Assembly (NCBI RefSeq): GCF_052048095.1
Contig: NZ_JBNAKG010000001.1
Location: forward strand, 193,300 to 257,299
Length of the DNA stretch: 64,000 bases
Direction: 5' to 3'
DNA from: Candidatus Pelagibacter sp.
Lineage (GTDB): Bacteria; Pseudomonadota; Alphaproteobacteria; Pelagibacterales; Pelagibacteraceae
Of the stretch, positions 10,904-43,924 are shown in pieces; positions within the stretch are counted from its first letter, which is position 1, and each line of letters opens with the position of its first letter. The notes below the pieces were generated by a model that was given only the letters and a program-made list of their open reading frames with translations, was not told the DNA's origin and did not search any database. Made by a program: the position numbers and the translations under genes.

Positions 10904-11509
10904 ATGACTAAAATAAAAACTCATAAATTATTTCCTATACCAATTTTTGAATTCAAAATTCAAAATCATGAAAATTTAAATAGTGAATTAGAAGAATACA
11001 TATATAAACTTCGAAAAAATGATCCTAAAGGAATGAATTTATCAAATAGTGGTGGCTGGCATTCACCTTATTTTAATATTAGAGACACTGAAGTTTTAAA
11101 AAAATTTGTGAAAATTGTTTATAATTATCTTCATGAAATAATTACAAAAGAATATGGTTGGGAGTTTAAGAGTGAAAAAGTATTTATTGAGGCTATGTGG
11201 TCAATAATAAATAAAAAAAATTCCTATAATCTTAGACACGTTCACCCAAATTGTATGTTAAGTGCTGCGTATTATGTTAAGGCAAAAAAAAATTGTGGAA
11301 AAATACAGTTTTGGGATCCTACAGAAGCTAAAATTATGAGACATCCATTTGTATCTAAATTTACAGATTTATCTATTGAGTCAATTAAATTTGAGCCAGA
11401 GGAAGGTACATTATTTATTTTTCCTGCTTACCTACATCATGCTGTAGAAAAGAACTTGTCTGATGAGGATAGAATTGTAATTAGTTTCAACGTTGATATT
11501 GTAAAATAG
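10904..11509 (+). CDS. TIGR02466-family putative 2OG-Fe(II) oxygenase
   Basis: LFPIPI start, SNSGGWHS, HVHPNCMLSAAYYV, EGTLFIFPAYLHHAV, DRIVISFN. Confidence 0.8.
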   Translation: MTKIKTHKLFPIPIFEFKIQNHENLNSELEEYIYKLRKNDPKGMNLSNSGGWHSPYFNIRDTEVLKKFVKIVYNYLHEIITKEYGWEFKSEKVFIEAMWSIINKKNSYNLRHVHPNCMLSAAYYVKAKKNCGKIQFWDPTEAKIMRHPFVSKFTDLSIESIKFEPEEGTLFIFPAYLHHAVEKNLSDEDRIVISFNVDIVK

Positions 11510-11510
11510 A

Positions 11511-12086
11511 CTACAATTTATAACCAAAATCTGAATTTATAATAAAATCTTCATCATTAAAATTTTCTCTAATTTTTTTTCTTAATCTATAAATATGCGT
11601 TTCAACTGTATGAGTTTCCAAATCATTTTGATGATTCCAAATATTCTTTTGTAAATCTTGAACTGTTTTTGATTTATAGTTTGAAAAAAGATATAAGATT
11701 ATCTGAATTTCTTTTTCTGTAAGTTTTAGTTGTGTATTTTTTTTAGAGATTAATTTTGAATTGATATCAAGATTATAATCTTTAATTTTGATATTTGCTT
11801 GATTGTGAAAATTAACTTTTAAAAATTGTATATTAATTTTAACTATAAGATCACGAATTTTTAATGGTAAATTTTTTATTTCCAAAATTTGATTAAATTT
11901 AAATTTACTAATCAGTTCAGGTTCAACTTTATTTATTAAATAAATAGTATTGTTCGAAATAAAATTATCTTTATTCAAGTTTTCTGATTTTATGAAAATA
12001 ATTTCATATGGAAAGTAATTTTTTAATTCAAAGAGAATTTCATATAGAGTTTTTGAATTAACAATACATAAATTTTTGTTTATCAT
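11511..12086 (-). CDS. OmpR-type winged-helix DNA-binding protein with eroded receiver domain
   Basis: C-terminal LTEKE...IWN...ETHTVETHIYRLRKKI; the N-terminus has no recognisable receiver motifs. Confidence 0.8.
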   Translation of the reverse strand: MINKNLCIVNSKTLYEILFELKNYFPYEIIFIKSENLNKDNFISNNTIYLINKVEPELISKFKFNQILEIKNLPLKIRDLIVKINIQFLKVNFHNQANIKIKDYNLDINSKLISKKNTQLKLTEKEIQIILYLFSNYKSKTVQDLQKNIWNHQNDLETHTVETHIYRLRKKIRENFNDEDFIINSDFGYKL

Positions 12087-12098
12087 ACAAAAAATATA

Positions 12099-12590
12099 AT
12101 GAATATTTATTTAAAAAATAACAATACACTTTGTGTTGGTGACTTTCAATTTAGATGTTCAATTGGAAAAAATAAACTGAAAAAAAATAAATCTGAAGGT
12201 GATAAATCTACACCAATAGGAAAGTTTAAATTAAAATACTTGTATTATAGAAAAGACCGAATTAAAGAAATAACAACTAAGATAAAAAAGAAAATAATAA
12301 AAAAAAATTTAGGTTGGTGTAATGATATTAAAAGTAAAGAATACAACAAACCAATAATTATAAACAAAAGAATAAATCATGAAAAAATGTATAGATATGA
12401 TGAAAAGTATAATTTGGTTATTGTATTAGATCATAATATGAAGAATCCTATTCCTGGAAAAGGAAGTGCTATTTTTATCCATATAACTAACAATTATTCA
12501 CCAACTGCTGGGTGCATAGCATTAAGCAGAAAAGATTTGGTAATATTATTAAAAGTAATATCAAATAATACCTATATCGTAATAAATTAA
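12099..12590 (+). CDS. L,D-transpeptidase family protein (YkuD-like)
   Basis: EGDKSTPIG, GKGSAIFIH, PTAGCIAL (His/Cys catalytic motif). Confidence 0.85.
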   Translation: MNIYLKNNNTLCVGDFQFRCSIGKNKLKKNKSEGDKSTPIGKFKLKYLYYRKDRIKEITTKIKKKIIKKNLGWCNDIKSKEYNKPIIINKRINHEKMYRYDEKYNLVIVLDHNMKNPIPGKGSAIFIHITNNYSPTAGCIALSRKDLVILLKVISNNTYIVIN

Positions 12591-13243
12591 CCTCTTTGAC
12601 CAAAGATGTTTGACCCGATTCTTAAGTAACTAGACCCACAATTTGCTGCTGTTAGATAATCATTAGACATGCCCATACTCAATTCTTTTAAAGATAAATC
12701 TAAAGCTAATGATTTTAATTCAAAAAAGTATTTTTTTGGATCTTCAATTGCAGGTGGTAAACACATTAATCCAATGATATTTAAATTTAATTCTTTTGTA
12801 CATTTTTTATAAAATTCTTTTAAAGAATTTTTTTCAATCCCACTTTTTTGAGACTCATTTGCCAAATTAACTTGAATAAAAATTTTTGGTTTAAAATTTT
12901 TTTTTATTTGTTCTAATGAAATTTTTTCAGCTAATTTAATATTATCAAGTGAGTGAATATAATCAAACAAAGGTAATAAAAACTTTACTTTGTTTGTTTG
13001 AATTTTTCCCAACATATGTAATTTAATTTTGGAATTTTCAGATTTTACTTTTGTCCACTTTTCAGTTGCCTCCTGTATCTTATTTTCACCAAAATGAACC
13101 TGTCCATGTAAAATTAAGGGATATATATTATTAATATCGAATGTTTTGCTAACTGCTACTATTGTAGGAGTTTTATCCTTGGCTGTATCTAATTGTTTTA
13201 ATTGGTTTTGAATAGTTATTAAGTTATTAACCGTTTTATGCAT
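12587..13243 (-). CDS. yggS: Pyridoxal phosphate homeostasis protein (YggS/PipY)
   Basis: IVAVSKT, FGENKIQE, HMLGKIQTNK, LSMGMSNDY, LRIGSNIFG. Start at 13243 or 13246. Confidence 0.93.
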   Translation of the reverse strand: MHKTVNNLITIQNQLKQLDTAKDKTPTIVAVSKTFDINNIYPLILHGQVHFGENKIQEATEKWTKVKSENSKIKLHMLGKIQTNKVKFLLPLFDYIHSLDNIKLAEKISLEQIKKNFKPKIFIQVNLANESQKSGIEKNSLKEFYKKCTKELNLNIIGLMCLPPAIEDPKKYFFELKSLALDLSLKELSMGMSNDYLTAANCGSSYLRIGSNIFGQRG

Positions 13244-13771
13244 CATAATAAATTATTAATATATACATATATTGAAAATTTTGACTCAAATCTCATAATT
13301 AATTTACCAAAAAAAATATCTCTAATATACAGAAATTATGAAAAAACAAATAATAATAATGAGATTTTAAAAATTGTTAAATTGTGCAAAAAAATTAAAC
13401 GTAAAATTTTTATATCTAATAATATAAAGTTAGCGATTAAATTAAATACAGATGGAGCTTACGTGCCTTCTTTTAATAATAATTTAAATGTCAGATATTT
13501 AAAATTTAAAAAAAATTTTGAATTAATTGGTTCAGCTCATACATATAAAGAAATTAAGATAAAAAAAATGCAGAATATTAATAAAATTTTTTTATCACCA
13601 ATTTTTGAGAGTCAAAAATCAAAAAAAAATTTAGGTATATATAGGTTTTTACAATTAAAAAAATATGCAAATGTAGAAATAATTTGTTTAGGAGGTATAA
13701 AAAAACATAATTTGAAAATATTTAAAATGATTAAACCAGCAGGATTTGCATCTATTTCTTTATTTAGGTAA
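13238..13771 (+). CDS. Thiamine-phosphate synthase-like (TenI/ThiE fold) protein
   Basis: IGSAHT, FLSPIF, LGGIK motifs; short and degenerate relative to true ThiE. Confidence 0.68.
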   Translation: MHHNKLLIYTYIENFDSNLIINLPKKISLIYRNYEKTNNNNEILKIVKLCKKIKRKIFISNNIKLAIKLNTDGAYVPSFNNNLNVRYLKFKKNFELIGSAHTYKEIKIKKMQNINKIFLSPIFESQKSKKNLGIYRFLQLKKYANVEIICLGGIKKHNLKIFKMIKPAGFASISLFR

Positions 13772-13792
13772 ATAAATTAAAATACTTACAGA

Positions 13793-15352
13793 ATGATCAA
13801 AAAAAATGAAATTGAATATATAAAAAATGAATTAGAAAAAATAAAAAAATTTTTTACTGTTCAAAAATATGATGTTGTAATTGAAAAAACTAAAAAATTA
13901 CTAAAAAAAGATAAATATCAATTAGTCTTTTATAACTATATCGGACTTTCCTATAAACAATTAAATAAACTGGATGAAGCAACAAAAATTTTTAAACAAG
14001 CATTAAAAATTTTTCCACAAAGTGAAAGTTTACTAGGAAATATTGGATCTGTTTTAAGATTATCTGATAAGCTATACGAGGCTGAAGAGTATTTTGAAAG
14101 ATCTCTAAAAATAAATCCAAATAATGTAAGCACATTAGTAAATTATGGAAACCTTAAGCGTGATCAAAATAAAATTGAAGAAGCGATAGAAATTTATGAA
14201 AAAGCAAGAAGTTTAGATAAAAATATAGAAATATTACTAATCAATTTAGCTTCAACATACCAAGTAATTGGAAAATTTGATAAGTCAGAGGAAATTTTGA
14301 AAGATCTTAGTGAGAGATTTCCTAATAACACCTTATCAGACAAACTTTTCAGTAATTTTCATAAATATGAAACTAATGATGACCACCAGGATAAGATGTT
14401 AGAAAAAATAAAAAACCCTAACATTAATAATGAAAACTTAATGACTTTAAGTTTTGCTCTAGCAAAATCCTATGCAGATCAAAAGAATTATAAGAAATCT
14501 GCAGAATATTTTACTTTAGGAAATGAAACAAAATATAAGATGTTTTTGAATTATAATTTCAATAAAATAGAAAGAGAAAGATTTGAAACGATCAAAAATT
14601 TGTTTGTCGACATTGATCTTGAAAAATTCAATGAAAACAATGATGCCAACTTGATATTTGTTGTAGGATTGCCTCGATCTGGAACAACACTAACACATCA
14701 AATAATTTCATCCCACTCTAAGGTTTATGGGGCCGGTGAATTGCCTATTTTGAATAATTTTTTTTCACCAAAAATTTTTGATGATAACTTTTTAACTTTT
14801 TTTAAAAATCCAAAAATTAGATCTGGCTACATTAAAGAAATTTCTTATGAAGTATTAAAATACTTTAAAGAGTACAATGAAAATTTAATTATATTGGATA
14901 AATCACCTTTAAATTTTGAATGGATAGGCTTTATTAAATTGCTATTTCCTTCTGCTAAAATTGTACATTGTACAAGAAATTTAAAAGACACAGCCTTATC
15001 AATCTACAAAAATGTTTTCGATGGTTCATCTTTGCCGTGGAGTTACAATCAAAGTGAATTGGTTAAATTTATTAATTTATACCAAGACTTAATGAGATTT
15101 TGGGACCATAAGCTTCCAAATCAAATTTATAATTGCAATTATGAAAATTTAGTAAGTAATCCAAATGATGAGATACCAAATTTGATTAAGTTTTTAAATC
15201 TAAATTGGGAAGAAAATTGTTTAGATCATACTAAAAATGATACTGTTATAAAAACTGTCAGTATATCACAAGCTAGAAAACCAATTTATAAAAACTCGAT
15301 AAACCTAAATAATGAGTTTACTAAATATCTAGACTTTTTGAAAAAATTATAA
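13793..15352 (+). CDS. TPR-repeat sulfotransferase
   Basis: N-terminal TPRs (e.g. YNYIGLSYKQLNKLDEATKIFKQALKIFP), 5'-PSB FVVGLPRSGTTL, DKSPLN, 3'-PB HCTRNLKDTALS, C-terminal KTVSISQARKPIY. Confidence 0.9.
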   Translation: MIKKNEIEYIKNELEKIKKFFTVQKYDVVIEKTKKLLKKDKYQLVFYNYIGLSYKQLNKLDEATKIFKQALKIFPQSESLLGNIGSVLRLSDKLYEAEEYFERSLKINPNNVSTLVNYGNLKRDQNKIEEAIEIYEKARSLDKNIEILLINLASTYQVIGKFDKSEEILKDLSERFPNNTLSDKLFSNFHKYETNDDHQDKMLEKIKNPNINNENLMTLSFALAKSYADQKNYKKSAEYFTLGNETKYKMFLNYNFNKIERERFETIKNLFVDIDLEKFNENNDANLIFVVGLPRSGTTLTHQIISSHSKVYGAGELPILNNFFSPKIFDDNFLTFFKNPKIRSGYIKEISYEVLKYFKEYNENLIILDKSPLNFEWIGFIKLLFPSAKIVHCTRNLKDTALSIYKNVFDGSSLPWSYNQSELVKFINLYQDLMRFWDHKLPNQIYNCNYENLVSNPNDEIPNLIKFLNLNWEENCLDHTKNDTVIKTVSISQARKPIYKNSINLNNEFTKYLDFLKKL

Positions 15353-15383
15353 AAAAAAAGGCCCCAGAAAATGGGGCCCTTTT
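15351..15383. terminator. Intrinsic terminator between convergent sulfotransferase and porin genes
   Basis: A9-GGCCCCA-GAAAA-TGGGGCC-CTTTT; the long U-tract lies on the minus (porin) strand. Confidence 0.88.
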
Positions 15384-15408
15384 ATTAATTTAAATTCTAA
15401 TCTTTAAA

Positions 15409-16401
15409 TTAGAATGCAAATGATACTGCAATTTCTGTGTGCTCAGACACGTTTGCAGCTGTGTTTGCAATGTTTTTACCTTCGTTTTGGTGGGCTTTAA
15501 TTGTAATTCCACCCATTGAGTAACCGATTGAGTAACCTGAAAGTTCTTGATCAGTTGTAGAACCTTCTTTTTCAGTTTCAGACTCTCCGTAAGAAATTGA
15601 TAGGTTTTCGTTTACTGCGAAAGCAATACCGTATGCAGCTGTTTCAAGATCATTAGTTGCACCTGCAGGCTCAACATCTGAAACTTGGTAACCAGCAGTT
15701 ACTGGACCATAAGCGTACGTTACAGCGTAAGTTTGCATATCATCATCTTGAGTACCATTGCTGTTACCTTTAGAACCTGTACCAGCGTAGATGTTTAAAC
15801 CATCCATTGGTGCTACTTGTACTGCAATTGAAGTAGCAGAGTTTACTCCACCAGTACCAGATGTAGAACCATCGTCTACAGAACCTGTAGTTCCTTTAGT
15901 TCCATAACCAGCATTGATAGTTACCATATCCATTGAGTAGTTGAAATTGAAACCATTCATACCACCATCAACTCTACCCACTGGGGCTTCGTTAGTAGTA
16001 GTTTGACCAGCGTCAATACCATTCCATACTTCTTCATCAGCTGTTGGCATTACGTCATCAATTTTACCAATACCAAGATCACCTGAATCTTGTTGGTAAG
16101 TTAATGATCCCATGTCTCCCATGTCGTAAGTCAATGTTGAAGTTGACTTATCACCACCCGCTGTTGAAAGCGCGTGCATTAATGATACTGTGTGACCATT
16201 ATCTAGTTCACCTGATCCACTTAATGAGATAGCTTGTTGCATACCAATTCTGCTACCATCGTCTTGTGTATCTTCGTTACCAGTGTTTGCTGTGTATGTC
16301 ATTTTAGCACCACCAGTTACTGTTAACTCACCAGCACTAGCAGAAAACGCTACTAATGAACCAGCAAGAGCTGAAAGACCAATTTTTTTTAAGTCTGTCA
16401 T
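15409..16401 (-). CDS. Outer-membrane porin
   Basis: Signal peptide ending AFSASA, Gly/Thr/Asp-rich beta-strand pattern, C-terminal VSFAF, strong SD (AAGGAGA), its own terminator. Confidence 0.85.
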   Translation of the reverse strand: MTDLKKIGLSALAGSLVAFSASAGELTVTGGAKMTYTANTGNEDTQDDGSRIGMQQAISLSGSGELDNGHTVSLMHALSTAGGDKSTSTLTYDMGDMGSLTYQQDSGDLGIGKIDDVMPTADEEVWNGIDAGQTTTNEAPVGRVDGGMNGFNFNYSMDMVTINAGYGTKGTTGSVDDGSTSGTGGVNSATSIAVQVAPMDGLNIYAGTGSKGNSNGTQDDDMQTYAVTYAYGPVTAGYQVSDVEPAGATNDLETAAYGIAFAVNENLSISYGESETEKEGSTTDQELSGYSIGYSMGGITIKAHQNEGKNIANTAANVSEHTEIAVSFAF

Positions 16402-16516
16402 GTTTTCTCCTTTGTTTGTTTATTTAGTATTATTATTAATAATAACGGTGCAATAATTACCAAAATGCCACTAAAATGGTTAATTATTTAAGGAAAATTT
16501 ATCTTTTTTTTCTAAG

Positions 16517-16534
16517 TGTGATAAAAATATCACA
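16517..16534. promoter_or_regulatory. Inverted repeat, candidate transcription-factor site
   Basis: TGTGAT-N6-ATCACA in the porin/DUF3576 divergent intergenic region. Confidence 0.45.
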
Positions 16535-16597
16535 TATTGTTTGCTATTAGTTTTTATTTGTATGTTCTAACAAATAAATTAAATAGATATTACCGAA

Positions 16598-17176
16598 ATG
16601 ACAAAGTTTTTTAAATCTTCAATCATATTTTTTTTGATAATATTGTTTTTTAATAGCTGTGGTATTTACAGGCCTGTTGATACTAGGAAGGTGCCTATTA
16701 ATGCCAATGAAAGAACAAAAAAAAATATTCAACAAGGTAAAGGTTTCACTTTGTTTGACTCACAAAAAAATAAAGGCTCGGGAAATTTTGAATTTGCATC
16801 CTCCAATCCTATGTGGCGAGCCTCAATTAAACTTTTAGATTTTACTCCATTTAGTAATGTTGACTATGCAGGTGGAATAATAATTACAGATTGGTTTAAT
16901 AATGATGATGCTAATTCAAATGAGTCAATCAAAATTACAGTTAAATTTCTATCTAATGAAGTAAGAGCCGATGGAATAAACGTACTTATTTACAAAAAAA
17001 TTTGCAACACTAATAGTAACAATTGTACTGTTTCAAAAATCGATTCTGATTTATCTAATGAGATTAAATTAGCTATCTTGAAAGAAGCAGCCATAATAAA
17101 AGAATTTGAAGACAGTCAAATAGTTAGACCTGATTTCCAAATGCCAGGTGAAGGCACTGACAATAACCAATTATAA
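16598..17176 (+). CDS. DUF3576-family lipoprotein
   Basis: Lipobox FNSC, NPMWRASIKLLDF, DYAGGIIITDW; sits upstream of leuS as in other alphaproteobacteria. Confidence 0.78.
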   Translation: MTKFFKSSIIFFLIILFFNSCGIYRPVDTRKVPINANERTKKNIQQGKGFTLFDSQKNKGSGNFEFASSNPMWRASIKLLDFTPFSNVDYAGGIIITDWFNNDDANSNESIKITVKFLSNEVRADGINVLIYKKICNTNSNNCTVSKIDSDLSNEIKLAILKEAAIIKEFEDSQIVRPDFQMPGEGTDNNQL

Positions 17177-17202
17177 TAAATTAGTTAAACCATATCTATA
17201 AA

Positions 17203-19740
17203 ATGGAAAGATATAATTTTAAATTCGTCGAAGAAAAATGGCAAAACTATTGGGACAAAAATAAAACATTTAAGACTTCAGAAGATACAAATAAAAAAAA
17301 ATTTTATTGTTTAGAAATGTTTCCCTATCCATCTGGAAAAATTCATATGGGTCATGTTAGAAATTATACTATAGGTGATATTCTTGCGCGTTTCAAAATT
17401 TTACAAGGATACAATGTTTTACATCCTATGGGATGGGACTCTTTTGGTATGCCTGCTGAAAATGCAGCCAGACAAAATAAACTAGATCCTAAAAGTTGGA
17501 CTGAAAAAAATATTTCTGTAATGAAATCTCAACTAAAAAAGTTAGGACTTTCTATAGATTGGGATAGAGAGATTTCAACTTGCTCATCTGATTATTATCG
17601 TCATCAACAAGAATTTTTTTTAGAACTTTATGACAAAGGTCTTGTTTATAAAAAAGAAAATTATGTTAATTGGGATCCCGTTGATCAAACAGTTTTAGCT
17701 AATGAACAAGTAATAGATGGTAAGGGATGGAGATCTGGCGCTGTAGTTGAAAGAAAAAAATTAAATCAATGGTTTTTTAGAATTACAGAATTTTCAGAAG
17801 AATTGTTGGCTAATCTTGAAAAATTAAATGAATGGCCCAACAAAGTCAAAATAATGCAAAAAAATTGGATTGGTAAATCATTTGGATCGGAAGTTAGTTT
17901 TCCAATTACTAATTCAGAAAAAATTAAAGAAATTAAATGTTATACAACTCGACCAGATACATTATTTGGTCTTTCATTTTTAGCTTTGTCTGTTGATCAT
18001 CCTATTTCGAAATTTTATGAAAATGATGAAAAATTTAACGAATTTAAAAAGAAATGTTCACAAAGTGGAACAACTGAAGAGTCTATAGCCAATGCAGAAA
18101 AAATTGGTTTTAAAACACAATTATTAGCAACAAACCCGTTAGATAAAAATCAACAAGTGCCTGTATATTTTGCTAATTTTGTACTTATGGATTATGGGTT
18201 GGGTGCTGTGTTTGGTTGTCCTGCGCATGACCAAAGAGATTTAGATTTTGCTTTGAAATATAAATTAAATGTAAAAACGGTAGTAACACCTGATATAAAT
18301 AATAAAGATTTCGCAATATCAAATGAAGCCTACACGGGACCAGGCTACATATTTAATTCAGAATTTTTAGATGGATTAAAATGTCCTGAAGATTCAATTA
18401 TAAAAACAATAGAATATTTAGAAAAAAATAAGTTGGGCACAAGAAAAGTTAATTACAGATTAAAAGACTGGGGTATTTCTCGTCAACGTTACTGGGGTTG
18501 TCCCATACCAATTTTGTACGATGAAAATGGAAAAGAAACCAAAGTTCCTCTAAATCAATTACCTGTTGAGCTACCTGAAGTAAAAGAATTGTCAGAGGCA
18601 GGAAACCCTCTTGATGACATTCAGGAATGGAAACATATCGAAATTGATGGAAAAAAATATACAAGAGAAACAGATACCCTTGATACCTTTGTTGATTCAT
18701 CCTGGTACTTTCTAAGATTTTGTTCGCCTAAAAATGAAAGTTATGGTTTTCAATATGATGAAATGAAATATTGGATGCCTGTCGATCAGTATATTGGTGG
18801 TGTTGAACATGCTATTCTACACCTATTATACTCACGTTTTTTCATGCAAGCTCTTTCTCATAAGAATGACAAAGTTGATATTACAGAACCATTCAAAGGA
18901 TTATTTACTCAAGGAATGGTGTGTCATGAAACATATAAAGATCAAAATAATAATTGGTTATATCCTAATGAAATTACATCAATAAATAACGAAAAATTTT
19001 TAAAATCAGATCCTAAACAAAAAGTGATTGTTGGTCCCTCAGAATCAATGTCTAAATCCAAGAAAAATACTGTAGACCCTGAAACAATTATTCAAAATTT
19101 TGGCGCAGATGCTACGAGGTTATTCATAATTTCTGATAGCCCACCTGAAAAAGATGTACAGTGGTCGGAACAAGGAATAGAAGCATCTTATAAATTTATT
19201 CAAAAGCTTTGGACATTACATCATAAATTTATGAATGAAATGAGATCCAACCATCAAAAAAATGATGATGATGAAATAGATAAAATCACAAACAAATTCT
19301 TAAATAAGATTACAACCAACCTAGAAAATTTTAATTATAATGTAATTGTTGCAAATATACATGAATTATATAATAACTTGAGTACTCTACTTAAAAAAAA
19401 TTATACAAAAAAAACACTTAAAGAAAATTACACTATATTATTAATTAGTATTTCACCTATAGTTCCTCATTTATCAAATGAATGTTTAGAGCAATTAGGA
19501 ATTAAAGAAAATATTATTTGGCCAAACATAAACAGAGACTATCTGGTGAATGAAAAAATTAATTTTGTAATTCAAATAAACGGAAAAAAGAGAGAAATCT
19601 TACAAGTCGATAGAGATTTAGATGAAGATAGAATTATGGATCAAATAAATTCATCAAAAAATCTTAAAAAACATTTAAAAGACACCGTAATTAGAAAGAA
19701 AATTTTTGTACCTAATAGATTAATAAATATCATAATATAG
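17203..19740 (+). CDS. leuS: Leucyl-tRNA synthetase
   Basis: [13 protein letters not shown] (HIGH), [21 protein letters not shown] (KMSKS). Confidence 0.98.
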
Positions 19741-19744
19741 ATAA

Positions 19745-20200
19745 ATGAAAAAAATTAATTTCTTTCTAACTCTTCTAATTTTGATTCAAGGTTGTGGATT
19801 TACTCCTGTATACATTTCAAGTGATAGTGTAAATTTTAATATTGAGAACGTCACATATGAAGGAGATCAAGAAATAAATAACTATATAAAAATTGGACTA
19901 AAAAAATATAATGCAAAAAATTCGGATAAAGCAAACTTTAAGATTTCTGCTAAAACTAACTACACAAAAATAGCTCAATCAAAAGATACGAAAGGTAACA
20001 CTCAAACATTTAAAGTACAAAGCACTGTAGCTTTTTTAGTGATTAATAATAATCAATCTTTTGAATTAATTTATTCAGAACAATCTGAAATGAATAATTC
20101 AGATGATACCTTTGAATTAAAATCGCTTGAAAATACAATAAAACAAAACTTTGCTTCTAGTATGGTTGATAAATTAATATTAGATTTATCTAGTAGGTAA
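19745..20200 (+). CDS. lptE: LPS assembly lipoprotein LptE
   Basis: Lipobox IQGCGFTPVY; lies between leuS and holA. Confidence 0.75.
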   Translation: MKKINFFLTLLILIQGCGFTPVYISSDSVNFNIENVTYEGDQEINNYIKIGLKKYNAKNSDKANFKISAKTNYTKIAQSKDTKGNTQTFKVQSTVAFLVINNNQSFELIYSEQSEMNNSDDTFELKSLENTIKQNFASSMVDKLILDLSSR

Positions 20201-21189
20201 TGATTTTTAAGTTTTATGAACTTAATAAAATTGATTTAAAAAGTATTAGAACTTTTCTTATTCATGGAAAAAATGATGGTGCTAAAAATTCAATCATAAA
20301 TCATATTAAAAAAATTGATAATGAGTGCGAAAAAATTAAATACACAGAAAAAGAAATATTAAACCAGAATGATGAATTCTATAATACTGTTCTCAATAAA
20401 TCATTTTTTGAAGAGAAAAAAATAATAATTGTTGATCAGGTTACAAGTAAAATAAAAAAGATCTTAGAAGATATCTTTGACAAAATTTCAGATGATATTT
20501 ACTTGGTCATTTTATCAGATCCTTTAGACAAAAAATCTGCTTTAAGGTTAGATTTTGAAAAAAGTAAAAACCATGCATGCATTGCTGTTTATCCTGAAAA
20601 TGAACAAACTATGATATCTTACGCTTCTAATTTTTTTTCTAAAAATAAAATATCAATCTCAAATGCTAATATTAACATGATCGTCAGTAAATGCTCGAAT
20701 GATATTGAAAATCTCAAAAATGAACTAAATAAAATTGAAATATATCTAAAAGATAAAAAAAATATTACCTCAGAAGAGATATTAAAATTAACTAACCTTA
20801 TTGAAAATCATAGTTTTTATGAATTAGTCAATAATTGTTTGGCATTAAATAACAAAAAGACTGTGAATATTTTAAATGAAAATAATTATAGCAGTGAAGA
20901 TACTATAACTATTATTCGAATTTTTTTAAGCAAAGCAAAACAACTAAATATTTTAGCTAAAGAATTTGAAAATTCAAAAAATATAGACTCAACCATAGCT
21001 AAGGCAAGACCTCCAATTTTTTGGAAAGATAAAGAAACAACTAAACTTCAGATTAAATATTGGACACAAAATAAAATCAAAAAACTATTAGATAAAATTA
21101 ATGAAACAGAATTATTAATAAAAAAAAACTCACAAAACTCACTGCAAATTCTATTTGATCTTATTTTAAATATAAAAATTAATAATTAG
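20200..21189 (+). CDS. holA: DNA polymerase III subunit delta
   Basis: leuS-lptE-holA synteny; ARPPIFWKDK motif. Confidence 0.85.
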   Translation: MIFKFYELNKIDLKSIRTFLIHGKNDGAKNSIINHIKKIDNECEKIKYTEKEILNQNDEFYNTVLNKSFFEEKKIIIVDQVTSKIKKILEDIFDKISDDIYLVILSDPLDKKSALRLDFEKSKNHACIAVYPENEQTMISYASNFFSKNKISISNANINMIVSKCSNDIENLKNELNKIEIYLKDKKNITSEEILKLTNLIENHSFYELVNNCLALNNKKTVNILNENNYSSEDTITIIRIFLSKAKQLNILAKEFENSKNIDSTIAKARPPIFWKDKETTKLQIKYWTQNKIKKLLDKINETELLIKKNSQNSLQILFDLILNIKINN

Positions 21190-26766: not shown

Positions 26767-28416
26767 TTATAATTGTCTAATCAAATCATCTATTTTACTA
26801 AAAAAATCATTTCTAAAGGAACTATCATCATATAATGGTGAAGATCTGGCTTTTGAAAATATATTATTCTTATATTTATTTAAATTTTGCTCATTAGCTA
26901 GACTCACACTTTTAGATACATAATCGTTAGTATCTTTAGCTATAAAGTTTTCGAATCCTAAATTTTTATTAATTGATTCACCACATCTAGATGTAAAATT
27001 TTTACCTTTCATTGTTATCAAAGGTAATCCACACATAATTGCCTCAAAACTTGTTGTTACACCATTATAGGGAAAAGTATCTAAAGCTATATCTGCTTCT
27101 TCATACATTTTTACATGATTCTTTGAATTTGTATACTTCATAAACACAATAGATTTTTCTACGCCATTTTTTTTGAATTTTTCCAACAAATCATCATTAA
27201 ATTGGAACATTGAAGATTTTAAAATTAATTTGGAATTTTTTACTTTTTTTAAAATTTCTGACCACGTATCTACTACTTCTTCAGTTATTTTTAAGAAATT
27301 ATTAAATGAGCAAAAAGTAATATAATTATTCTTTTTGAAGGGATAATTTCGAGTATTTATAATTTGACCATTATCCAACGTAAAACAATTCCAAATTTTA
27401 TTTAAATATATAATTTTTTCTGAATAAAACTTTTCCTCGTTTTTATAAACTAAATTTTTATCTGCAATAATATAGTCCATCTCATTCAAGCCAGTTGTAT
27501 TTGTATAGCCTAACCAATTAATCTGAATTTTTGAAATCCTATTTTTAAAATAAATAATCTTATTACCTGCAGTAAAACCCATCAAATCAAACACAATATC
27601 AATGTTTTTTTTTCTTATAAAATTTACTCCATCCAAATCATCCAAGTTATTGATTTCTATCCATTCATCAGCTAATAATTTAAATTCTCTTGTTGTTTCA
27701 TCATAATCTTCTGTTTTTAAATTTGAAATTATAATTAATTCATATTTTTTTCTTTGCTTTCCAATAAATAGGGTTTTTAAAAATTTAGTAACTGAATGTT
27801 GTGCCCTGATGTCAGCGCTCAAAAATGCAATTTTTACCTTTTTATTTATTCTAGAGTCTAACGGAAAAAGTTTATCTGATTGAAAAGGTTCTATTAAATT
27901 ATTAATCATTTTTGAATATTCAAAAATTTGGTTTTGATTCCAGGAATTAATAAAGAGATTATAATAAATCATTTTTTGCAAATTACTAATATTAAAACCA
28001 ATGTTTTTTTCACATAGACTTAGTATATCAACTATTTTTTTTGGATTATTTAAAAGGGCAAATGTAAGAATGATTTCTTCTACTAATTTTTCGTTATATC
28101 CAAAATTATTTAACACATCATCATAATATTTTGATGGTCTAAGCGGTTTCTTGTTAGAATTTGATAAACTTGCAAAATTAATAAAACAATCAAAAGCGTG
28201 CCTGCTTTTTTTTTCTTTATTATAACCATCTTCAAAAATTTGCAAAACTTTCTCATTATCAAAATTTAAAAGAAGCTTTGAAGCACCTAATATATTTAAA
28301 AACTGAGAGTTTAAATTTTCATAAGAGGAATTATTTTCAATTAAGTCTATAGCATCTTTATAATTTTTATCTAAAAAGGTCTTCGCTATTTTAAAATGAA
28401 GCTCTTTATCAATCAT
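26767..28416 (-). CDS. SPINDLY/OGT-like glycosyltransferase (GT41) with degenerate helical-repeat N-terminus
   Basis: KIAFLSADIRAQHSV, DLMGFT, QINWLGYTNTTG, DYIIAD, FCSFNNFLK, DIALDTFPYNGVTTSFEA. Confidence 0.87.
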   Translation of the reverse strand: MIDKELHFKIAKTFLDKNYKDAIDLIENNSSYENLNSQFLNILGASKLLLNFDNEKVLQIFEDGYNKEKKSRHAFDCFINFASLSNSNKKPLRPSKYYDDVLNNFGYNEKLVEEIILTFALLNNPKKIVDILSLCEKNIGFNISNLQKMIYYNLFINSWNQNQIFEYSKMINNLIEPFQSDKLFPLDSRINKKVKIAFLSADIRAQHSVTKFLKTLFIGKQRKKYELIIISNLKTEDYDETTREFKLLADEWIEINNLDDLDGVNFIRKKNIDIVFDLMGFTAGNKIIYFKNRISKIQINWLGYTNTTGLNEMDYIIADKNLVYKNEEKFYSEKIIYLNKIWNCFTLDNGQIINTRNYPFKKNNYITFCSFNNFLKITEEVVDTWSEILKKVKNSKLILKSSMFQFNDDLLEKFKKNGVEKSIVFMKYTNSKNHVKMYEEADIALDTFPYNGVTTSFEAIMCGLPLITMKGKNFTSRCGESINKNLGFENFIAKDTNDYVSKSVSLANEQNLNKYKNNIFSKARSSPLYDDSSFRNDFFSKIDDLIRQL

Positions 28417-28474
28417 TAATTCAAATTAGTGTTCTTTATCAATAATTTAAATAAGTTTTTATATTTTAATTTAC

Positions 28475-31263: not shown

Positions 31264-32264
31264 TTATAATCTTTCACAAATTTAACTAAATAATCCATCA
31301 TCTCTGGATTTGTTTCTGGTAATATCCCATGACCTAAATTAAAAATATAAGGATGATCTTTGAATATATCTAAATATTTTTTTGCCTGGTTTTTAATGTT
31401 TTCTTTGTCAGACAACAAAACTTTGGGATCCATACCTCCTTGCACTGGAATATTAATGTCTTTTATAATATTTAATGGATCAACTTCGTAATCGATACAA
31501 ACTCCATCTGGTTTAACTATTTCACAATAATTTTTATAATTTTTAATACCTCGAGGAAAACATATAACAGGCACGTTTAAAGTTTTAGTATATTCCACTA
31601 AATTTAAAGTCGGAATGTAAACAAAATTTGGTAAATCTTTTTCTTCTAATAAACCTGCCCAACTATCAAAAATTTGAATAACTTCAGCTCCGTTTTCGAC
31701 TTGATTTTTTATATGTAATTTTAGAAATCTTTCTAAAGCTATTAAAATTCTATTTATTAAGAATTCATCACTAAAAAAATCTTCTTTTAATTTTAGTTTC
31801 GGTGATTGTTTGTTAATCATATAAACTAATAAAGTCCATGGCGCACCAACAAAACCTATCGTACTTTTTGAATTTGTTAATTCATGATTACTAACTAAAT
31901 TTATAGCCTTATAAACTGGGTAAACTTTTTCTACAAAATCAACCTCATCTAATTTTGATATTTCATTTAAATCCAGATCTCCTAATAATGGGCCAAAATT
32001 TTTCTTAAATTCTACTTTCTGATTTAAACCATAAGGTAACATTAGAATATCTGAAAAAATTATAGCAGCATCTAAATCAAATCTTTTTAAAGGTTGTAGT
32101 GTAATTTCAGATGATAATTTTTCATTTAGACATAGTTTTATAAAATCAGGATTTTTTTTTCTTATCTCTCTAAATTCAGGAAGATATCTCCCAGCTTGTC
32201 TCATTATCCAAATAGGATTTATTGAAGTATCTCTATTTTTTAAAACTTTATGTAATGGAGTCAT
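31260..32264 (-). CDS. hemE: Uroporphyrinogen decarboxylase
   Basis: WIMRQAGRYLPE, IFSDIL, GAPWT, FNLGHG. Confidence 0.97.
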   Translation of the reverse strand: MTPLHKVLKNRDTSINPIWIMRQAGRYLPEFREIRKKNPDFIKLCLNEKLSSEITLQPLKRFDLDAAIIFSDILMLPYGLNQKVEFKKNFGPLLGDLDLNEISKLDEVDFVEKVYPVYKAINLVSNHELTNSKSTIGFVGAPWTLLVYMINKQSPKLKLKEDFFSDEFLINRILIALERFLKLHIKNQVENGAEVIQIFDSWAGLLEEKDLPNFVYIPTLNLVEYTKTLNVPVICFPRGIKNYKNYCEIVKPDGVCIDYEVDPLNIIKDINIPVQGGMDPKVLLSDKENIKNQAKKYLDIFKDHPYIFNLGHGILPETNPEMMDYLVKFVKDYK

Positions 32265-32525
32265 ATAATAATTATATAATAATAGATTGTATTAGTATTA
32301 AGTAATGTGAATAACGTTAATTATTTATTATCAACATTTTATACATGAGTTATTTAATAATTATTTAATATTTTACGAGCTTTTTTGAAATTAATTAAAT
32401 TTTTGTATATCTTTCATACAGTATTTTATAAATGTTAATAAAATGCTCATTTTACAACAGATTATGATTAAAAATAAATTTGTTTAATTTAATTAAAATA
32501 TTACAAAGTTATTAACAAGATATAC
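32265..32525. other. Probable chromosomal replication origin (oriC)
   Basis: Largest intergenic gap in the window, extremely AT-rich, between hemE and the DUF299 gene (the Caulobacter Cori position). DnaA-box-like 9-mers at 32306-32314 (TTATTCACA, minus), 32328-32336 (TTATCAACA), 32433-32441 and 32509-32517 (TTATTAACA). Confidence 0.8.
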
Positions 32526-37863: not shown

Positions 37864-38700
37864 ATGCTAATTTGGTTAGCTTCATATCCTAAAAGTGGAA
37901 ATACACTTATGCGAGCAATGTTAGCTTCTTATTTTTTTTCTCAAGACGGTAAGTTTAATTTTGAATTATTGCCTAATATCAAACAATTTCCGTCCAATCA
38001 ATTTTTAAAAAACCTCAATATTGATATAAAGAATGATGACGAAGTTCTTAAAAATTATATAAATGCTCAATCTAAGTTTAACAAAAAAAAAGCAATTCAA
38101 TTTGTAAAAACGCATTGTGGTTTTAATAAAGTCAACGGATACAGTTTTACTAATTTTGATATAACATTAGGTGCAATTTATATAATAAGGGATCCAAGGA
38201 ATTTAGTTGAGTCATTTTCTCGACATTACAGCTTTTCAATTGATCAATCAGTGGATTTCCTGATAAACGGTTTAATACTTCCAAGAAATGAAAAACGTCC
38301 ATTAACTGTTGTTGGTTCTTGGAGAGAAAATTTTGAGTCTTGGAAATCTTTGGAACAATCTAGTAGATTTTTATTAGTTAAATATGAAGATATAGTGAGT
38401 AATAAAAGATTAACTCTAAAAAAAATCTTGAATTTTATAAAAAAACTATCCGGTTCAAATTTCTTAATCGATGATGAAAAAATTAAAAATGTCTGCGATT
38501 CAACAAGTTTTGAAAATATGAAAAAAATGGAAGAAAATAATGGTTTTATAGAAGCTCAAATTGATGAAAAAACTAATAAAAAAATTAAATTTTTTGAACT
38601 TGGGCCTGATGTAGATAGAAAAGATTTAGTTAAATCAAAAAATATAAACAAAATAGAAAAGCACTATAAAAAAGAATTAAAATATTTTGGCTATATTTAA
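37864..38700 (+). CDS. Sulfotransferase (cytosolic SULT-like family)
   Basis: 5'-PSB WLASYPKSGNT, FVKTH, 3'-PB IIRDPRNLVES, VKYED. Confidence 0.85.
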   Translation: MLIWLASYPKSGNTLMRAMLASYFFSQDGKFNFELLPNIKQFPSNQFLKNLNIDIKNDDEVLKNYINAQSKFNKKKAIQFVKTHCGFNKVNGYSFTNFDITLGAIYIIRDPRNLVESFSRHYSFSIDQSVDFLINGLILPRNEKRPLTVVGSWRENFESWKSLEQSSRFLLVKYEDIVSNKRLTLKKILNFIKKLSGSNFLIDDEKIKNVCDSTSFENMKKMEENNGFIEAQIDEKTNKKIKFFELGPDVDRKDLVKSKNINKIEKHYKKELKYFGYI

Positions 38701-38701
38701 A

Positions 38702-40078: not shown

Positions 40079-40593
40079 TATATTTTTTCTATTTTGACAT
40101 TATCATTTGTGAATACACAAATATCAGCAGCAACTTTAATAGCTTTTTTTGCTACTTCTTCTGCAGACATGTCTGTTTCCATTAAAACTTTTCCAGCAGC
40201 TAAGGCGTAATTTCCACCAGAACCAATACCAATTACATCACCTTCTGGCTCTAATACATCTCCTGTTCCAGAAATTATATAACTATTATTTTTATCTCCT
40301 ACCGCCATTAATGCTTCTAGTCTTCTTAAATATTTGTCAGTTCGCCAATCTTTTGCCAACTCCACAGCAGCTCTAGAAAGATTACCTGCATGTTTTTCAA
40401 GTTTGCCCTCTAATCTTTCAAATAATGTCAGTGCATCTGCAGTTGATCCTGCAAAGCCAGCAACTACATCTCTTTTTTCAATTTTTCTAACTTTTGATGC
40501 TGTGCTTTTTACAACAGTATTTCCCATGCTAACCTGTCCATCACCAGCTACTACCACATCTTTATTTTTTCGCACTAATACGATTGTTGTCAT
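40078..40593 (-). CDS. hslV: ATP-dependent protease subunit HslV
   Basis: MTTIV (N-terminal Thr nucleophile), [18 protein letters not shown]. Confidence 0.98.
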
Positions 40594-40598
40594 GGATA

Positions 40599-40628
40599 AT
40601 ACATGGATATTAATTTTAATTCTTCAAG
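40599..40628 (-). promoter_or_regulatory. Putative RpoH-type promoter of hslVU
   Basis: Minus-strand CTTGAA-N16-CCATGTAT ending 5 nt before the hslV ATG. Confidence 0.55.
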
Positions 40629-40682
40629 TACTGATTACTGATATTGATAAATTCCATAATCTATATATACCTTCATATAGAT

Positions 40683-41273
40683 ATGGCTAGAAAAGGTAAG
40701 ATTGCTAGAAAAACAAAAGAGACCAGCATCAGTGTTGAGGTTAATATTGATGGCAAAGGCAAATATCAAATAGATACAGGCATAGGTTTTTTAGACCATA
40801 TGTTGGAACAATTATCAAAACATTCTCTTATTGATTTAAAAGTAAAAGCAAAAGGTGATACACACATTGATCTTCATCACACCACAGAAGACACAGGTAT
40901 TGCTATAGGTGAAGCATTAAAAAAAGCAGCAAATAAATTTGTTGGCATTAAAAGATACGCACATGCAATGATACCAATGGATGAAACGCTTACAAGAGTT
41001 GCCGTTGATGTTTCTAATAGACCATATTTGATATGGAAGGTTAAAGTAAAAGTTGAGAAACTAGGAGAGATGGATACAGAGCTATTTAAAGAATGGTTTC
41101 AAGCATTTTCTCAAGCAGCCGGAGTAACTTTGCATGTTGAGAATATTTATGGTGAAAATAGCCACCACATTATCGAGTCTTGTTATAAAGGATTAGCAAG
41201 ATCTTTAAGAACCGCACTAGAAATGGATCCACGTAGTAAAAAATCTATTCCATCAACCAAAGGTTCTTTATAA
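40683..41273 (+). CDS. hisB: Imidazoleglycerol-phosphate dehydratase
   Basis: [25 protein letters not shown]. Start moved to the ATG at 40683. Confidence 0.96.
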
Positions 41274-41279
41274 AATTTA

Positions 41280-41906
41280 ATGAAAGTCACAATCGTTGAC
41301 TATAATTCTGGAAATATCAGTTCAGTAATTAATTCATTTAAAGAAGTTGCAAAAAATAAAATAGACCTTGAGGTTACCTCAGATCTACAAAAGATAAGAT
41401 CTAGCGATAAACTTGTCTTGCCTGGCCAAGGTTCGTTTAAGAGCTGTGTAGACGCTTTAAATGCTATAAATGGACTTACAGAAGCACTCAGTGAATTTAC
41501 TATAAATGACAAGAAGCCACTTCTTGGAATTTGTGTTGGATTACAAATGTTTGCAGATATTGGTTATGAGGAGACTGAAACAAAAGGTCTTGGTTGGATT
41601 CCAGGAAAAGTTTCAAAAATTGATAATAAAGATGGTATGTTTAAACTGCCTCATATCGGTTGGAATGAAATAAATATTGTTAAAGAAAGTAAAATTTTTA
41701 AAAATTTAGATAAAAATTCTCACATGTATTTTGTTCATAGTTATGAATTTATACCAGATAATAAAAATGTAATCTCCGCAACAACTGATTATTCAACAAA
41801 CATTGTTTGTGCTGTTGAGAAAGAAAATATTTTTGGTACACAATTTCATCCAGAAAAAAGTGATAAATTAGGATTAAAATTAATTGATAATTTTTTGAAT
41901 TTATAA
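41280..41906 (+). CDS. hisH: Imidazole glycerol phosphate synthase glutaminase subunit
   Basis: LPGQG, GICVGLQ, PHIGWN, QFHPEKS. Confidence 0.96.
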   Translation: MKVTIVDYNSGNISSVINSFKEVAKNKIDLEVTSDLQKIRSSDKLVLPGQGSFKSCVDALNAINGLTEALSEFTINDKKPLLGICVGLQMFADIGYEETETKGLGWIPGKVSKIDNKDGMFKLPHIGWNEINIVKESKIFKNLDKNSHMYFVHSYEFIPDNKNVISATTDYSTNIVCAVEKENIFGTQFHPEKSDKLGLKLIDNFLNL

Positions 41907-41907
41907 A

Positions 41908-42633
41908 ATGAAAATATTTCCGGCAATAGACATTAAAGATAAAAAATGTGTTAGATTAATAAAGGGTGACTTTGGAAATAAAACAGATTATGCAATTTCA
42001 CCAATTGAACAAGCAGGTAAGTATAAAGAATATGGTTTTAGAAATTTACATATTGTTGACCTTGATGGTGCGCTTACAGGTAAAACAATAAATTTAGACC
42101 TTATTGCAAAAATAGTAAAAAAGTTTGATATCAAAATTGAGGTAGGAGGTGGAATAAGAAATATTGATAGTATTAAAAAGTATTTAGATACAGGTGTAGA
42201 AAAAATAATTTTAGGTAGTGCGGCAATTAAGGATAAAAAATTTTTAAAAGAAGCGTGCAAAAAATTTCCAGAAAAAATTGCATTAGGATTGGATGCCAAA
42301 AATGGCTATTTATCTGTTTCAGGCTGGAAAGAAAATTCAAATCAATTAACGTTAAATTATTTAAAAGAAGTAAATGATTATGGAGCTAGTAGATTAATTT
42401 ATACTGACATTAATAGAGATGGAATGAAACAAAGCCCTAATTTTTTGGAAACTACCAAAGTAGCTGGTTTATCAAATTGTCCCGTAATTATTTCAGGAGG
42501 AGTTTCTTCAATAGAAGACATAAAAAAAGCCAAAGAATTACAAAATAAGAACATAGAAGGTATTATTGTTGGAAAAGCTATTTATGATGGAGATATAAAA
42601 TTAGAGGAGCTCGCAAAGGAATTAGATGCTTAA
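41908..42633 (+). CDS. hisA: ProFAR isomerase
   Basis: [27 protein letters not shown]. Confidence 0.96.
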
Positions 42634-43381
42634 AAATAGAATTATACCTTGCTTGGATGTGAAAAATGGAAGAATTGTTAAAGGTATCAATTTTGTTGGA
42701 TTAAAAGATGCAGGAGATCCTGTAGAACAAGCAAAAATTTATAGTGAGGGTGGTGCAGATGAAATATGTTTTTTAGATATCACAGCTTCAAATGAGAATA
42801 GAGATACAATATTTGATGTTGTTAGCGAAACATCCAAAAAATGCTTTGTACCATTAACCGTTGGTGGTGGAGTTAGAAGCGTTGAAGATATAAGCAAACT
42901 TTTGAATTGTGGTGCAGATAAAGTTTCAATTAATACAGCAGCTGTTCAAAACCCCGATGTAGTTATACAAAGTTCAAAAAAATTTGGCTCACAATGTATT
43001 GTTGTAGCTATTGATGCAAAAAAAAATGATAACAAATGGGAAATTTATACTCATGGAGGAAGAACTAGTACGGGAATAGATGCCGTTGAATTTGCGTCAA
43101 ACATGGAAAGAAATGGTGCAGGGGAACTATTAATCACTTCAATGGATAGAGACGGTACACAAATTGGTTATGATATCGATTTGGTGTCGACGATCTCATC
43201 TAGAGTTAATATACCGGTTATAGCTTCAGGTGGAGTTGGTGAATTAGAACACTTAGCAGAAGGTATAAAAAATGGTAAAGCTAGCGCTGTACTAGCTGCA
43301 TCTATTTTTCATTACGGAAAACATTCTATCAAAGAGGCAAAGGAGTATTTAAATTCAAAAGGAATTCCAGTTAGAGTTTAA
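42626..43381 (+). CDS. hisF: Imidazole glycerol phosphate synthase cyclase subunit
   Basis: [28 protein letters not shown]. Confidence 0.97.
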
Positions 43382-43384
43382 GCC

Positions 43385-43924
43385 TTATCTAAATTTTGGA
43401 CCATTCATCCAAATAGCCAAAGTTGCTCTTGATCCAGATATAACTTTTTCAACTTTATGATTTATAAATGATGGAAAAATTATAGCAGTACCCGGTTTAA
43501 ATTCTTTAATTTTCATTTCACCATCTCTAAATAAGCAAAGATCTCCACCTTCGTATTCTTTTTCTGAACAATTAAGCAAACAAGTAAGCTTTATATCTTT
43601 AACTGGAGATTTTGGACTAGCATCAATGTGCCAAGTATATTCTTCATTTACTTCATAAGTATTATAATTCAACTTTTTACTTCCAGATAATTGAAATAGA
43701 TCAAATCCATAATGGTATGTATTTGACGTAATAATAAAATCTAAGAAAGGCATTATTAAATGCTGAATTGCACCAAGATGAACAAATTTAACCTGTGATG
43801 TTTTAATCGCCTCTTTTTTAGATTGATCATTCCCTTGGACTAAATTTTCACTAATAGCTTTATTAATTTTTTGGATATGATCAACTTTAAATAATGGAGC
43901 TGTATTATAAACTGTTTCACGCAT
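43385..43924 (-). CDS. 2OG-Fe(II) oxygenase (PKHD/prolyl-hydroxylase-like)
   Basis: YTWHID (HxD), YEGGDL, FPSFINHKV, GSRATL, C-terminal GPKFR. Confidence 0.85.
   Translation of the reverse strand: MRETVYNTAPLFKVDHIQKINKAISENLVQGNDQSKKEAIKTSQVKFVHLGAIQHLIMPFLDFIITSNTYHYGFDLFQLSGSKKLNYNTYEVNEEYTWHIDASPKSPVKDIKLTCLLNCSEKEYEGGDLCLFRDGEMKIKEFKPGTAIIFPSFINHKVEKVISGSRATLAIWMNGPKFR

Follow-up and report, generated by a model that had tools for sequence, protein, structure and literature searches.

Five modifying-enzyme genes stand singly among core genes

The window analyzed here is a 64,000-nucleotide stretch of the complete 1.297 Mb genome of a Candidatus Pelagibacter species (GCF_052048095.1; contig NZ_JBNAKG010000001.1, positions 193300-257299; ~28% GC). 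Five genes for modifying enzymes lie in it one by one: a TIGR02466-family 2-oxoglutarate (2OG)/Fe(II)-type oxygenase, a tetratricopeptide repeat (TPR)-sulfotransferase (TPR-ST), a SPINDLY/OGT-like GT41 glycosyltransferase, a SULT-like sulfotransferase and a second, PKHD-like 2OG oxygenase. The original prediction, made from this DNA, had read them as possibly one dispersed system acting together on proteins or surface polymers. Comparison with other Pelagibacter species showed that each gene occupies a conserved slot between core genes and that the slots are filled independently; the reading that we favor, at a probability of roughly 60%, is that each enzyme adds one decoration by itself, with no obligate relay between them. 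All five open reading frames (ORFs) were found intact at the predicted positions, and the description of them as modifying enzymes of the accessory genome, each lying by itself between core genes, was borne out.

The TIGR02466-family gene (10904-11509, + strand, 201 aa) starts 1 bp past the pfkB stop codon, with dapB-nth-pfkB on one side and an OmpR-like gene on the other. Its product matched TIGR02466 with 138.8 bits (cut-off 62.5) over positions 1-200 of 201, and PF13759 too; the only structural matches were 3BVC and 2RG4, both uncharacterised. The TPR-ST gene (13793-15352, + strand, 519 aa) lies between a thiE-like gene and a porin gene, convergent with the latter. It encodes TPR repeats and a Sulfotransfer_3 domain (127.9 bits; full-length PF13469 match) with a 5′-phosphosulfate loop reading GLPRSGTTL. 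The nearest relative of this catalytic domain was the tyrosylprotein sulfotransferase TPST1 (E = 2.7e-7).

Between mnmE and rho, the GT41 gene (26767-28416, - strand, 549 aa) gave 151.8 bits against Glyco_transf_41 (PF13844, cut-off 25). The full catalytic domain aligned to SPINDLY/OGT structures (PDB 7Y4I, 5DJS and 2VSN; E = 3e-44 to 2e-33), SPINDLY being the best solved relative (E = 3e-44) and TtOGT, XcOGT and human OGT aligning also. The protein may have an N-terminal helical-repeat domain such as SPINDLY and OGT have, but this would be a short, degenerate TPR-like one (~160-190 residues): Pfam detected no TPR in it, and hhalign matched the N-terminal 160 residues to the TPR region of the TPR-ST family with 98% probability over 154 columns. 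We also take three motifs in the sequence to resemble the OGT histidine, the FNxxxKI lysine and NGxTT. At 28387-28446 an imperfect copy (73%) of the initial 30 nt of the coding sequence directly precedes it, possibly left over from the 5′ end of an earlier allele, or else a chance product of AT-rich sequence.

The SULT-like gene (37864-38700, + strand, 278 aa), between smr and hslU, matched Sulfotransfer_1 (PF00685) with 78.5 bits. Its product carries both motifs for binding 3′-phosphoadenosine 5′-phosphosulfate (PAPS), YPKSGNT and IRDPRNLVES, and its closest solved relatives were TEG12, StaL and estrogen sulfotransferase/cytosolic SULTs. The window sulfotransferases share the PAPS-type fold and the 5′-phosphosulfate loop with TPST1 (PDB 5WRJ)/RaxST and TEG12/StaL, but resemble them only weakly (E = 1e-7 to 1e-9); TPST lacks a TPR fusion, and a canonical PAPS supply is lacking here (see below).

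The fifth gene (43385-43924, - strand, 179 aa) lies antisense between hisF and hisE and gave 49.2 bits against 2OG-FeII_Oxy_3 (PF13640). Against PKHD its product reached 53.2 bits over residues 84-173 only, where cut-offs are 143 or more; HxD...H...R is retained in the alignment to 3DKQ. All five predicted family assignments therefore stood, that of the fifth gene at superfamily level only: judged by sequence, it encodes a member of the 2OG-FeII_Oxy_3 superfamily and nothing narrower. Orthology to YbiX/PiuC, and with it the transfer of an iron-uptake role, was ruled out by score (PiuC E = 0.26). The catalytic motifs of the PKHD-like, SULT and TPR-ST proteins are intact.

The neighbors of all five genes are core genes of the origin-proximal region (in the window dapB-nth-pfkB, leuS, parBA-gidBA-mnmE, rho, hemH, hemE, maf-aroE-coaE-dnaQ, secB, hslUV and hisBHAF/hisE). 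As predicted, no small-molecule pathway adjoins them, although the PKHD-like gene itself lies within the his operon, in antisense orientation. The two window sulfotransferases were the only members of PF00685 and PF13469 in the whole 1.297 Mb, and neither the GT41 nor the PKHD-like gene had a paralog in its own genome (tblastn, E <= 1e-3). The genome's full complement of these families is thus contained within 33 kb, and the grouping is no chance scatter of a large family.

The genes occupy recurring slots in a collinear Pelagibacter core

Homologs were sought in one genome for each of 250 species in the family, and no close ortholog of any of the five was found among them. The best non-self identity was 43-44% for GT41; best identities were 60-61% for TIGR02466 (with real homologs in only ~21 genomes), 59% for TPR-ST, 52% for SULT, which was frequently multi-copy, and 78% for the PKHD-like protein, with matches in only 16 genomes.

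We then surveyed the 40 kb around rho, anchored on Rho, in 47 other Pelagibacter species (45 complete or near-complete genomes of the genus, plus G187 and G047) and in the window's own genome (G000), making 48 regions, and counted a gap of >350 bp at a junction as an insertion. Forty-one core genes were collinear in 48/48 regions. Gaps above the threshold were confined to a few recurring junctions: pfkB/OmpR-like, thiE-like/porin, mnmE/rho, smr/hslU, hisF/hisE, hisH/hisA and a few rare others. Relatives thus carry insertions at the same positions between the same core flanks, and it is these positions that we call slots.

The mnmE/rho slot was filled in 30/48 genomes, by GT41, TPR-ST, SULT or combinations of them, and smr/hslU in 18/48, where the SULT copies are sometimes tandem. 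By an approximate reading, about four-fifths of the SULT copies locatable in complete genomes lie within ~30 kb of rho; members of the PKHD-like family in other species lie ~31-33 kb from it. One distant species, G187, was fully collinear with the window, with TIGR02466 and TPR-ST genes in place (TIGR02466 60% identical to the window's) and the rho/mnmE, smr/hslU and hisF/hisE junctions closed.

The five families accounted for 77/103 slot ORFs (~75%). Most of the others encode similar tailoring enzymes (GT47/RXYLT1-like, GT2, AT3-SGNH O-acetyltransferase, FkbM, Methyltransf_24, and a TPR protein beside 2OG-FeII_Oxy_3), and the remainder also included one EcoRI-methylase/GmrSD pair and secreted polysaccharide lyases (PF14099). 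In G199 an insert of three genes resembles, by eye from the sequence, a malyl-CoA lyase with a succinyl-CoA-synthetase-like pair.

The hisH/hisA junction (window ~41906) was interrupted by unrelated cargo in G043, G087, G091, G095, G103 and G199. This comprised an EcoRI-like methylase with a GmrSD/HNH nuclease in G043, secreted PF14099 polysaccharide lyases in G091 and G095 (a third such lyase lies at maf/aroE in G199), and FkbM and Methyltransf_24 methyltransferases in G199. A third recurrent SULT slot was seen beside a tRNA gene (window 49687-49758), ~19-21 kb from rho, in G047, G065, G083, G033 and G113; the window is empty there. The idea that homologs in other genomes form a separate hypervariable island was dropped, as tblastn of the window proteins placed the apparent island of G047 in the same syntenic core region.

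Slots are filled independently of one another

Across the 48 genomes, the window's own included, the state seen in the window occurred 6 times for TIGR02466, 8 for TPR-ST, 15 for GT41, 16 for SULT and twice for the PKHD-like gene, which was at hisF/hisE only in G000 and G199. No pairwise association among the five states was found across the 47 other species (all Fisher p > 0.08). All five were present only in the window's genome, with a maximum of three in any other. On a species tree based on 14 core proteins (5,284 columns), the fewest changes that could explain each state came close to its number of occurrences (TIGR02466 6/6, TPR-ST 7/8, GT41 12/15, SULT 12/16, PKHD-like 2/2). Occupancy shows almost no phylogenetic signal.

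The oxygenases and the transferases also differed in their relatives among phages. TIGR02466 homologs were found in 264 phage records and PKHD-like homologs in 308, 30-38% identical and comprising hundreds of cyanomyophage and a few Pelagibacter phage records; the PKHD-like protein was 35% identical to its homolog in pelagiphage Mosig. As in the window, these genes of marine T4-like cyanophages and pelagimyophages are single genes between core genes (gp23/gp3 in P-SSM2; a clamp-loader ATPase and a DNA polymerase fragment in Mosig). By tblastn against GenBank phages no homologs were found for SULT, GT41 or the sulfotransferase domain of TPR-ST, and single-sequence scans of IMG/VR gave nothing for SULT or GT41 and one weak match for TIGR02466. 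Close phage-borne copies (60% identity or more) were looked for in both collections and none was found.

These data bear directly on the relay that had been envisaged, in which the oxygenases hydroxylate, GT41 glycosylates and the sulfotransferases sulfate a protein or polymer, as in the Skp1 relay of Dictyostelium. The co-occurrence comparison that the original prediction had proposed as its own check, run here on 47 other species, found the genes occurring independently, at most three of the five together elsewhere, an outcome that the prediction had listed among those that would refute it. The mnmE/rho slot takes GT41, TPR-ST or SULT interchangeably, and the evolutionary connections of oxygenases and transferases differ. 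The PKHD-like protein falls under every PKHD cut-off and is no demonstrated prolyl hydroxylase. The likeness to the Skp1 relay is confined to chemistry classes (one genome encoding both a 2OG oxygenase and a glycosyltransferase), with no Skp1-like target, pathway partner, prolyl specificity or oxygenase/GT41 co-inheritance identified here. What speaks for a relay is that all five genes stand together in this genome as its only members of these families, a combination improbable under independence, and that the TPR-linked architectures suggest protein substrates. Taking both sides together, we consider a relay very improbable.

Slot alleles are deeply diverged, under purifying selection and probably exchanged with their flanks

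Proteins of the same family in the same slot had a median identity of 38-49%, compared with 75-93% for core proteins between species. Identity of slot genes did not follow species distance for GT41 (Spearman 0.01), TPR-ST (-0.17) or TIGR02466 (-0.42), and did so moderately for SULT at smr/hslU (0.51). The sister genome G006 illustrates this: its core proteins are 86% identical to those of the window, and its TPR-ST, GT41 and SULT only 37%, 38% and 45%, whereas the slot alleles of the distant G187 are 58-60% identical to the window's (TPR-ST 58%).

The flanks are mosaic as well. From parB through UPF0093, G000 and G006 share 83-99% identity; gidB reaches 92.5%, where the genus median is 51%. 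The block from pfkB to hyp329 (9976-21189), which holds the TIGR02466 slot, the TPR-ST slot and the porin, shows virtually no added similarity to G006 and is in part closer to G187. These per-gene identities point to multi-gene tracts exchanged by homologous recombination. Flanking repeats and nearby integrases were looked for at the slots and none was found; slot GC was 0.24-0.28 against 0.278 +/- 0.044 in the core. Mobile-element insertion was ruled out by the missing repeats and the core-like GC.

In every family dN/dS (the ratio of nonsynonymous to synonymous substitution rates) was 0.09-0.22, so that the slot genes are under purifying selection and show no decay overall. Decay and turnover are nevertheless ongoing in the mnmE/rho slot, where the GT41 gene of G107 has internal stop codons and the TPR-GT41 gene of G051 is broken into separate ORFs of 334 aa and 336 aa. 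In the SULT tree a single branch (support 90) separates 15 rho-slot copies from 20 smr/hslU copies, the hslU side including one relocated copy; each slot thus carries its own old allele lineage. The window's GT41 allele was not found in JGI metagenome contigs. Sizes of 90%-identity clusters were tried as a measure of allele frequency and proved uninformative, the Rho and HslU controls also being single-member.

Pure vertical descent, from an ancestor with every slot filled and with streamlining losses and fast evolution in place of exchange, would account for some of this. The slot-specific SULT clades fit one ancient colonisation per slot, the pseudogenised and split GT41 genes of G107 and G051 represent ongoing loss, and SULT identity at hslU tracks species distance to a degree. 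The other three families show no such correlation, however, and alleles of a sister species far more divergent than those of a distant one are hard to reconcile with it. Slots filled in just 15-16 genomes would call for 12 state changes or more, and both the flank mosaic and the conflict between porin and species trees (see below) point to recombination. We regard descent of this kind as improbable.

The slots surround a likely replication origin and adjoin a hypervariable porin

A 262-bp intergenic region between hemE and the kinase-PPPase gene (32265-32525, no strand assigned) has 14% GC and holds the cumulative GC-skew minimum, and on these sequence features it is likely to be oriC. A pattern scan of 32265-32525 found no perfect DnaA box; the sole near-consensus match, TTATCCAAA at 32204, lies inside hemE, just outside the region. 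The surroundings (hemE and maf-aroE-coaE-dnaQ) are a context that we take to be typical of alphaproteobacterial origins. All five slots are ~21 kb or less from this putative origin.

The TPR-ST slot is flanked by an outer-membrane porin gene (Pfam Porin_4; 15409-16401, - strand) that is itself hypervariable, with a genus median identity of 34% and 63% to G187, and the porin tree conflicts with the species tree. TPR-ST presence required 7 changes on the species tree and 3 on the porin tree, and 0/500 shuffles were as low. A TPR-ST gene was found somewhere in the region in 12/18 genomes of one porin clade and in 3/30 outside it (p = 7e-5, raw). This association persisted for rho-slot TPR-ST copies 12 kb from the porin (p = 7e-4), and SULT at smr/hslU was depleted in the same clade (p = 0.013). 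A phylogenetically controlled test was underpowered, with only 7 independent pairs, of which a mean of 4.4 agreed and 0.6 disagreed (median p 0.22). The co-variation may reflect linkage, population structure or a functional match.

Further along the window, a gene for a heparinase II/III-like protein (PF07940, 527 aa; ~51637-53220, - strand) lies between rpe and purH and is of possible interest given the sulfotransferases.

Sulfate supply in a genome lacking the canonical pathway

Searches of the genome gave no match to a Sat-type ATP sulfurylase (PF01747), to CysN or to a full-length CysC (the adenosine 5′-phosphosulfate (APS) kinase), and the canonical PAPS pathway was therefore scored as absent. 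The only APS-kinase-like sequence in the genome is a 137-aa P-loop protein (C1:1137190-1137432) conserved across the genus; it has an APS-kinase-like motif, LNADEVRKE...DFSEEGRKRQ, and scored 36.5 bits, where the cut-off is 138.7. Canonical cysC is carried by a minority of genomes. Each of the 11 complete ones that have it also has a sulfotransferase in the region surveyed, and 25 genomes with a sulfotransferase are without cysC.

Elsewhere in the genome an aprM-aprB-aprA cluster (C1:745533-749181; AprA 995 bits) has a HIT-family gene directly upstream, whose product might take the place of the missing ATP sulfurylase. At a distance of 8 kb from this cluster (C1:738441-739217) lies the gene for a CysQ-like phosphatase, which scored below cut-off. 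With these elements and the 137-aa protein present, a non-canonical route from sulfite to APS to PAPS is conceivable, though wholly inferred.

More speculatively, the slots near the origin may specify a combinatorial decoration code, in which the slot enzymes are alternative writers on one shared envelope target, with sulfate drawn by such a route from organosulfur-derived sulfite. The target could for example be the porin, whose allele class varies with TPR-ST presence even where the TPR-ST gene is 12 kb off. TPR-guided GT41, TPR-ST, SULT and 2OG-oxygenase cassettes would then modify the same class of protein; AprBA would form APS, the 137-aa protein would act as a mini APS kinase yielding PAPS, and the CysQ-like phosphatase would recycle 3′-phosphoadenosine 5′-phosphate. 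This would amount to sulfation in a bacterium unable to assimilate sulfate. We hold the proposal to be improbable.

Proposed role and relation to known systems

In the reading that we favor, each of the five genes fills by itself a conserved slot for one gene in the collinear Pelagibacter core near the origin. The slots hold old, deeply diverged alleles ("metaparalogs") of a few families of soluble cytoplasmic tailoring enzymes: sulfotransferases of the SULT and TPR types, TPR-GT41 glycosyltransferases and 2OG oxygenases of two kinds. Alleles, the empty state included, would move between lineages with flanking core DNA through homologous recombination, and purifying selection keeps each of them functional. 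Slot architecture, independent filling, allele divergence, selection and mosaic flanks are what the comparison shows; the role of the enzymes is the proposed part. Each enzyme alone may add a sulfate, sugar or hydroxyl to an envelope-destined protein or glycan precursor, so that lineages would differ in surface or protein chemistry. The window's genome simply has all five slots filled, and hydroxylation, glycosylation and sulfation would form no obligate sequence. Protein substrates are suggested by the TPR-linked architectures, seen in TPR-ST, in the apparent degenerate TPR on GT41 and in a pair of TPR and 2OG oxygenase genes in G093.

The same slots could instead hold metabolic metaparalogs, cytoplasmic enzymes that tailor imported small molecules or dissolved organic matter with differing substrate ranges and that have no bearing on surfaces. 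The predicted solubility and cytoplasmic location of all five proteins fit this, as do the relatives of SULT among small-molecule and peptide sulfotransferases (TEG12, StaL, estrogen sulfotransferase), the enrichment of SAR11 slot genes in transport and metabolism too in the slot literature, and the malyl-CoA lyase with succinyl-CoA-synthetase-like pair (identified by eye) and secreted polysaccharide lyases of other slots. Yet no transporters or catabolic genes adjoin the five, TPR fusions are atypical of catabolic enzymes, and the other occupants (GT2, GT47-like, AT3-SGNH, FkbM) are typical of glycan tailoring. To our knowledge, moreover, the GT41 enzymes characterised so far all act on proteins. 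This explanation seems to us unlikely.

Several results weigh against the favored reading of envelope decoration by independent enzymes. No signal peptide or transmembrane segment was predicted in any of the five proteins, and SULT's nearest solved relatives use small molecules or peptides. The genome is without recognisable PAPS synthesis, and the phage relatives of the oxygenases are located in replication and virion modules, not in surface modules. Occupancy is not entirely unstructured, because TPR-ST presence co-varies with porin allele class and SULT at hslU is depleted in the porin clade concerned. Under independence all five slots would be filled in ~3e-5 of genomes; the window was, however, chosen for having five.

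The locus is an instance of a slot architecture already known in SAR11. Polymorphic gene indels under purifying selection were described in SAR11 core regions, among them a potential sulfotransferase that did not turn up on any syntenic fragment (Wilhelm et al. 2007, PMC2217521). Most of the flexible genome was later found to lie in regions of a single gene that occupy equivalent positions, have divergent gene pools of their own and are enriched in the synthesis and modification of the cell wall (Molina-Pardines et al. 2025, PMC11796062), and metaparalogs at conserved slots have been reported (Martin-Cuadrado et al. 2026, bioRxiv 10.64898/2026.10.07.757358). The slots described here resemble those: in both, one or two genes lie at equivalent positions with the same core genes on either side, the occupants are divergent members of one family, mobile-element signatures are lacking, selection is purifying and envelope functions are enriched. 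The earlier studies worked within populations or genomospecies, where 91% of slots held the same family and 2% were absent, whereas the present comparison of 48 species across the genus found slots frequently empty and one of them swapping three enzyme families. Sulfotransferases and oxygenases go unmentioned in the main texts of PMC11796062 and bioRxiv 10.64898/2026.10.07.757358, and GT41 was not searched for there. What we add is a view at the scale of the genus, the finding that sulfotransferase, GT41 and 2OG families dominate the slots around the origin, the swapping between families seen at mnmE/rho, the sulfate-donor puzzle and the porin co-variation.

Sulfotransferases and glycosyltransferases have also been placed in a universal hypervariable region, with scattered islands noted ("Pelagibacter, resolved", bioRxiv 10.64898/2026.04.03.716430). 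The HVR2/O-chain island (PMC11898729; bioRxiv 10.64898/2026.04.03.716430) is likewise hypervariable, carries both enzyme classes and is read as a means of surface diversification, but it is one large multi-gene island with whole sugar pathways. The window genes are isolated and without sugar-synthesis partners, and the two sulfotransferases among them are the only ones in their genome. The five genes belong to a hypervariable pool of the kind that the SAR11 literature ties to envelope individuality and phage pressure, and by this analogy a role in individualising envelope or protein chemistry is plausible.

SAR11 bacteria are among the most abundant in the ocean, and how they keep up population-level diversity in tiny genomes is an active question. 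This locus offers a clean, genus-wide example of the slot/metaparalog model in which alleles travel with their flanks. It raises the puzzle of which donor the PAPS-type sulfotransferases use in a genome without a PAPS pathway, and that of whether a hypervariable porin, likely a phage receptor, is paired with one sulfotransferase in particular. Sulfation or glycosylation of envelope proteins, if it occurs in SAR11, would bear on phage-host recognition in the ocean.

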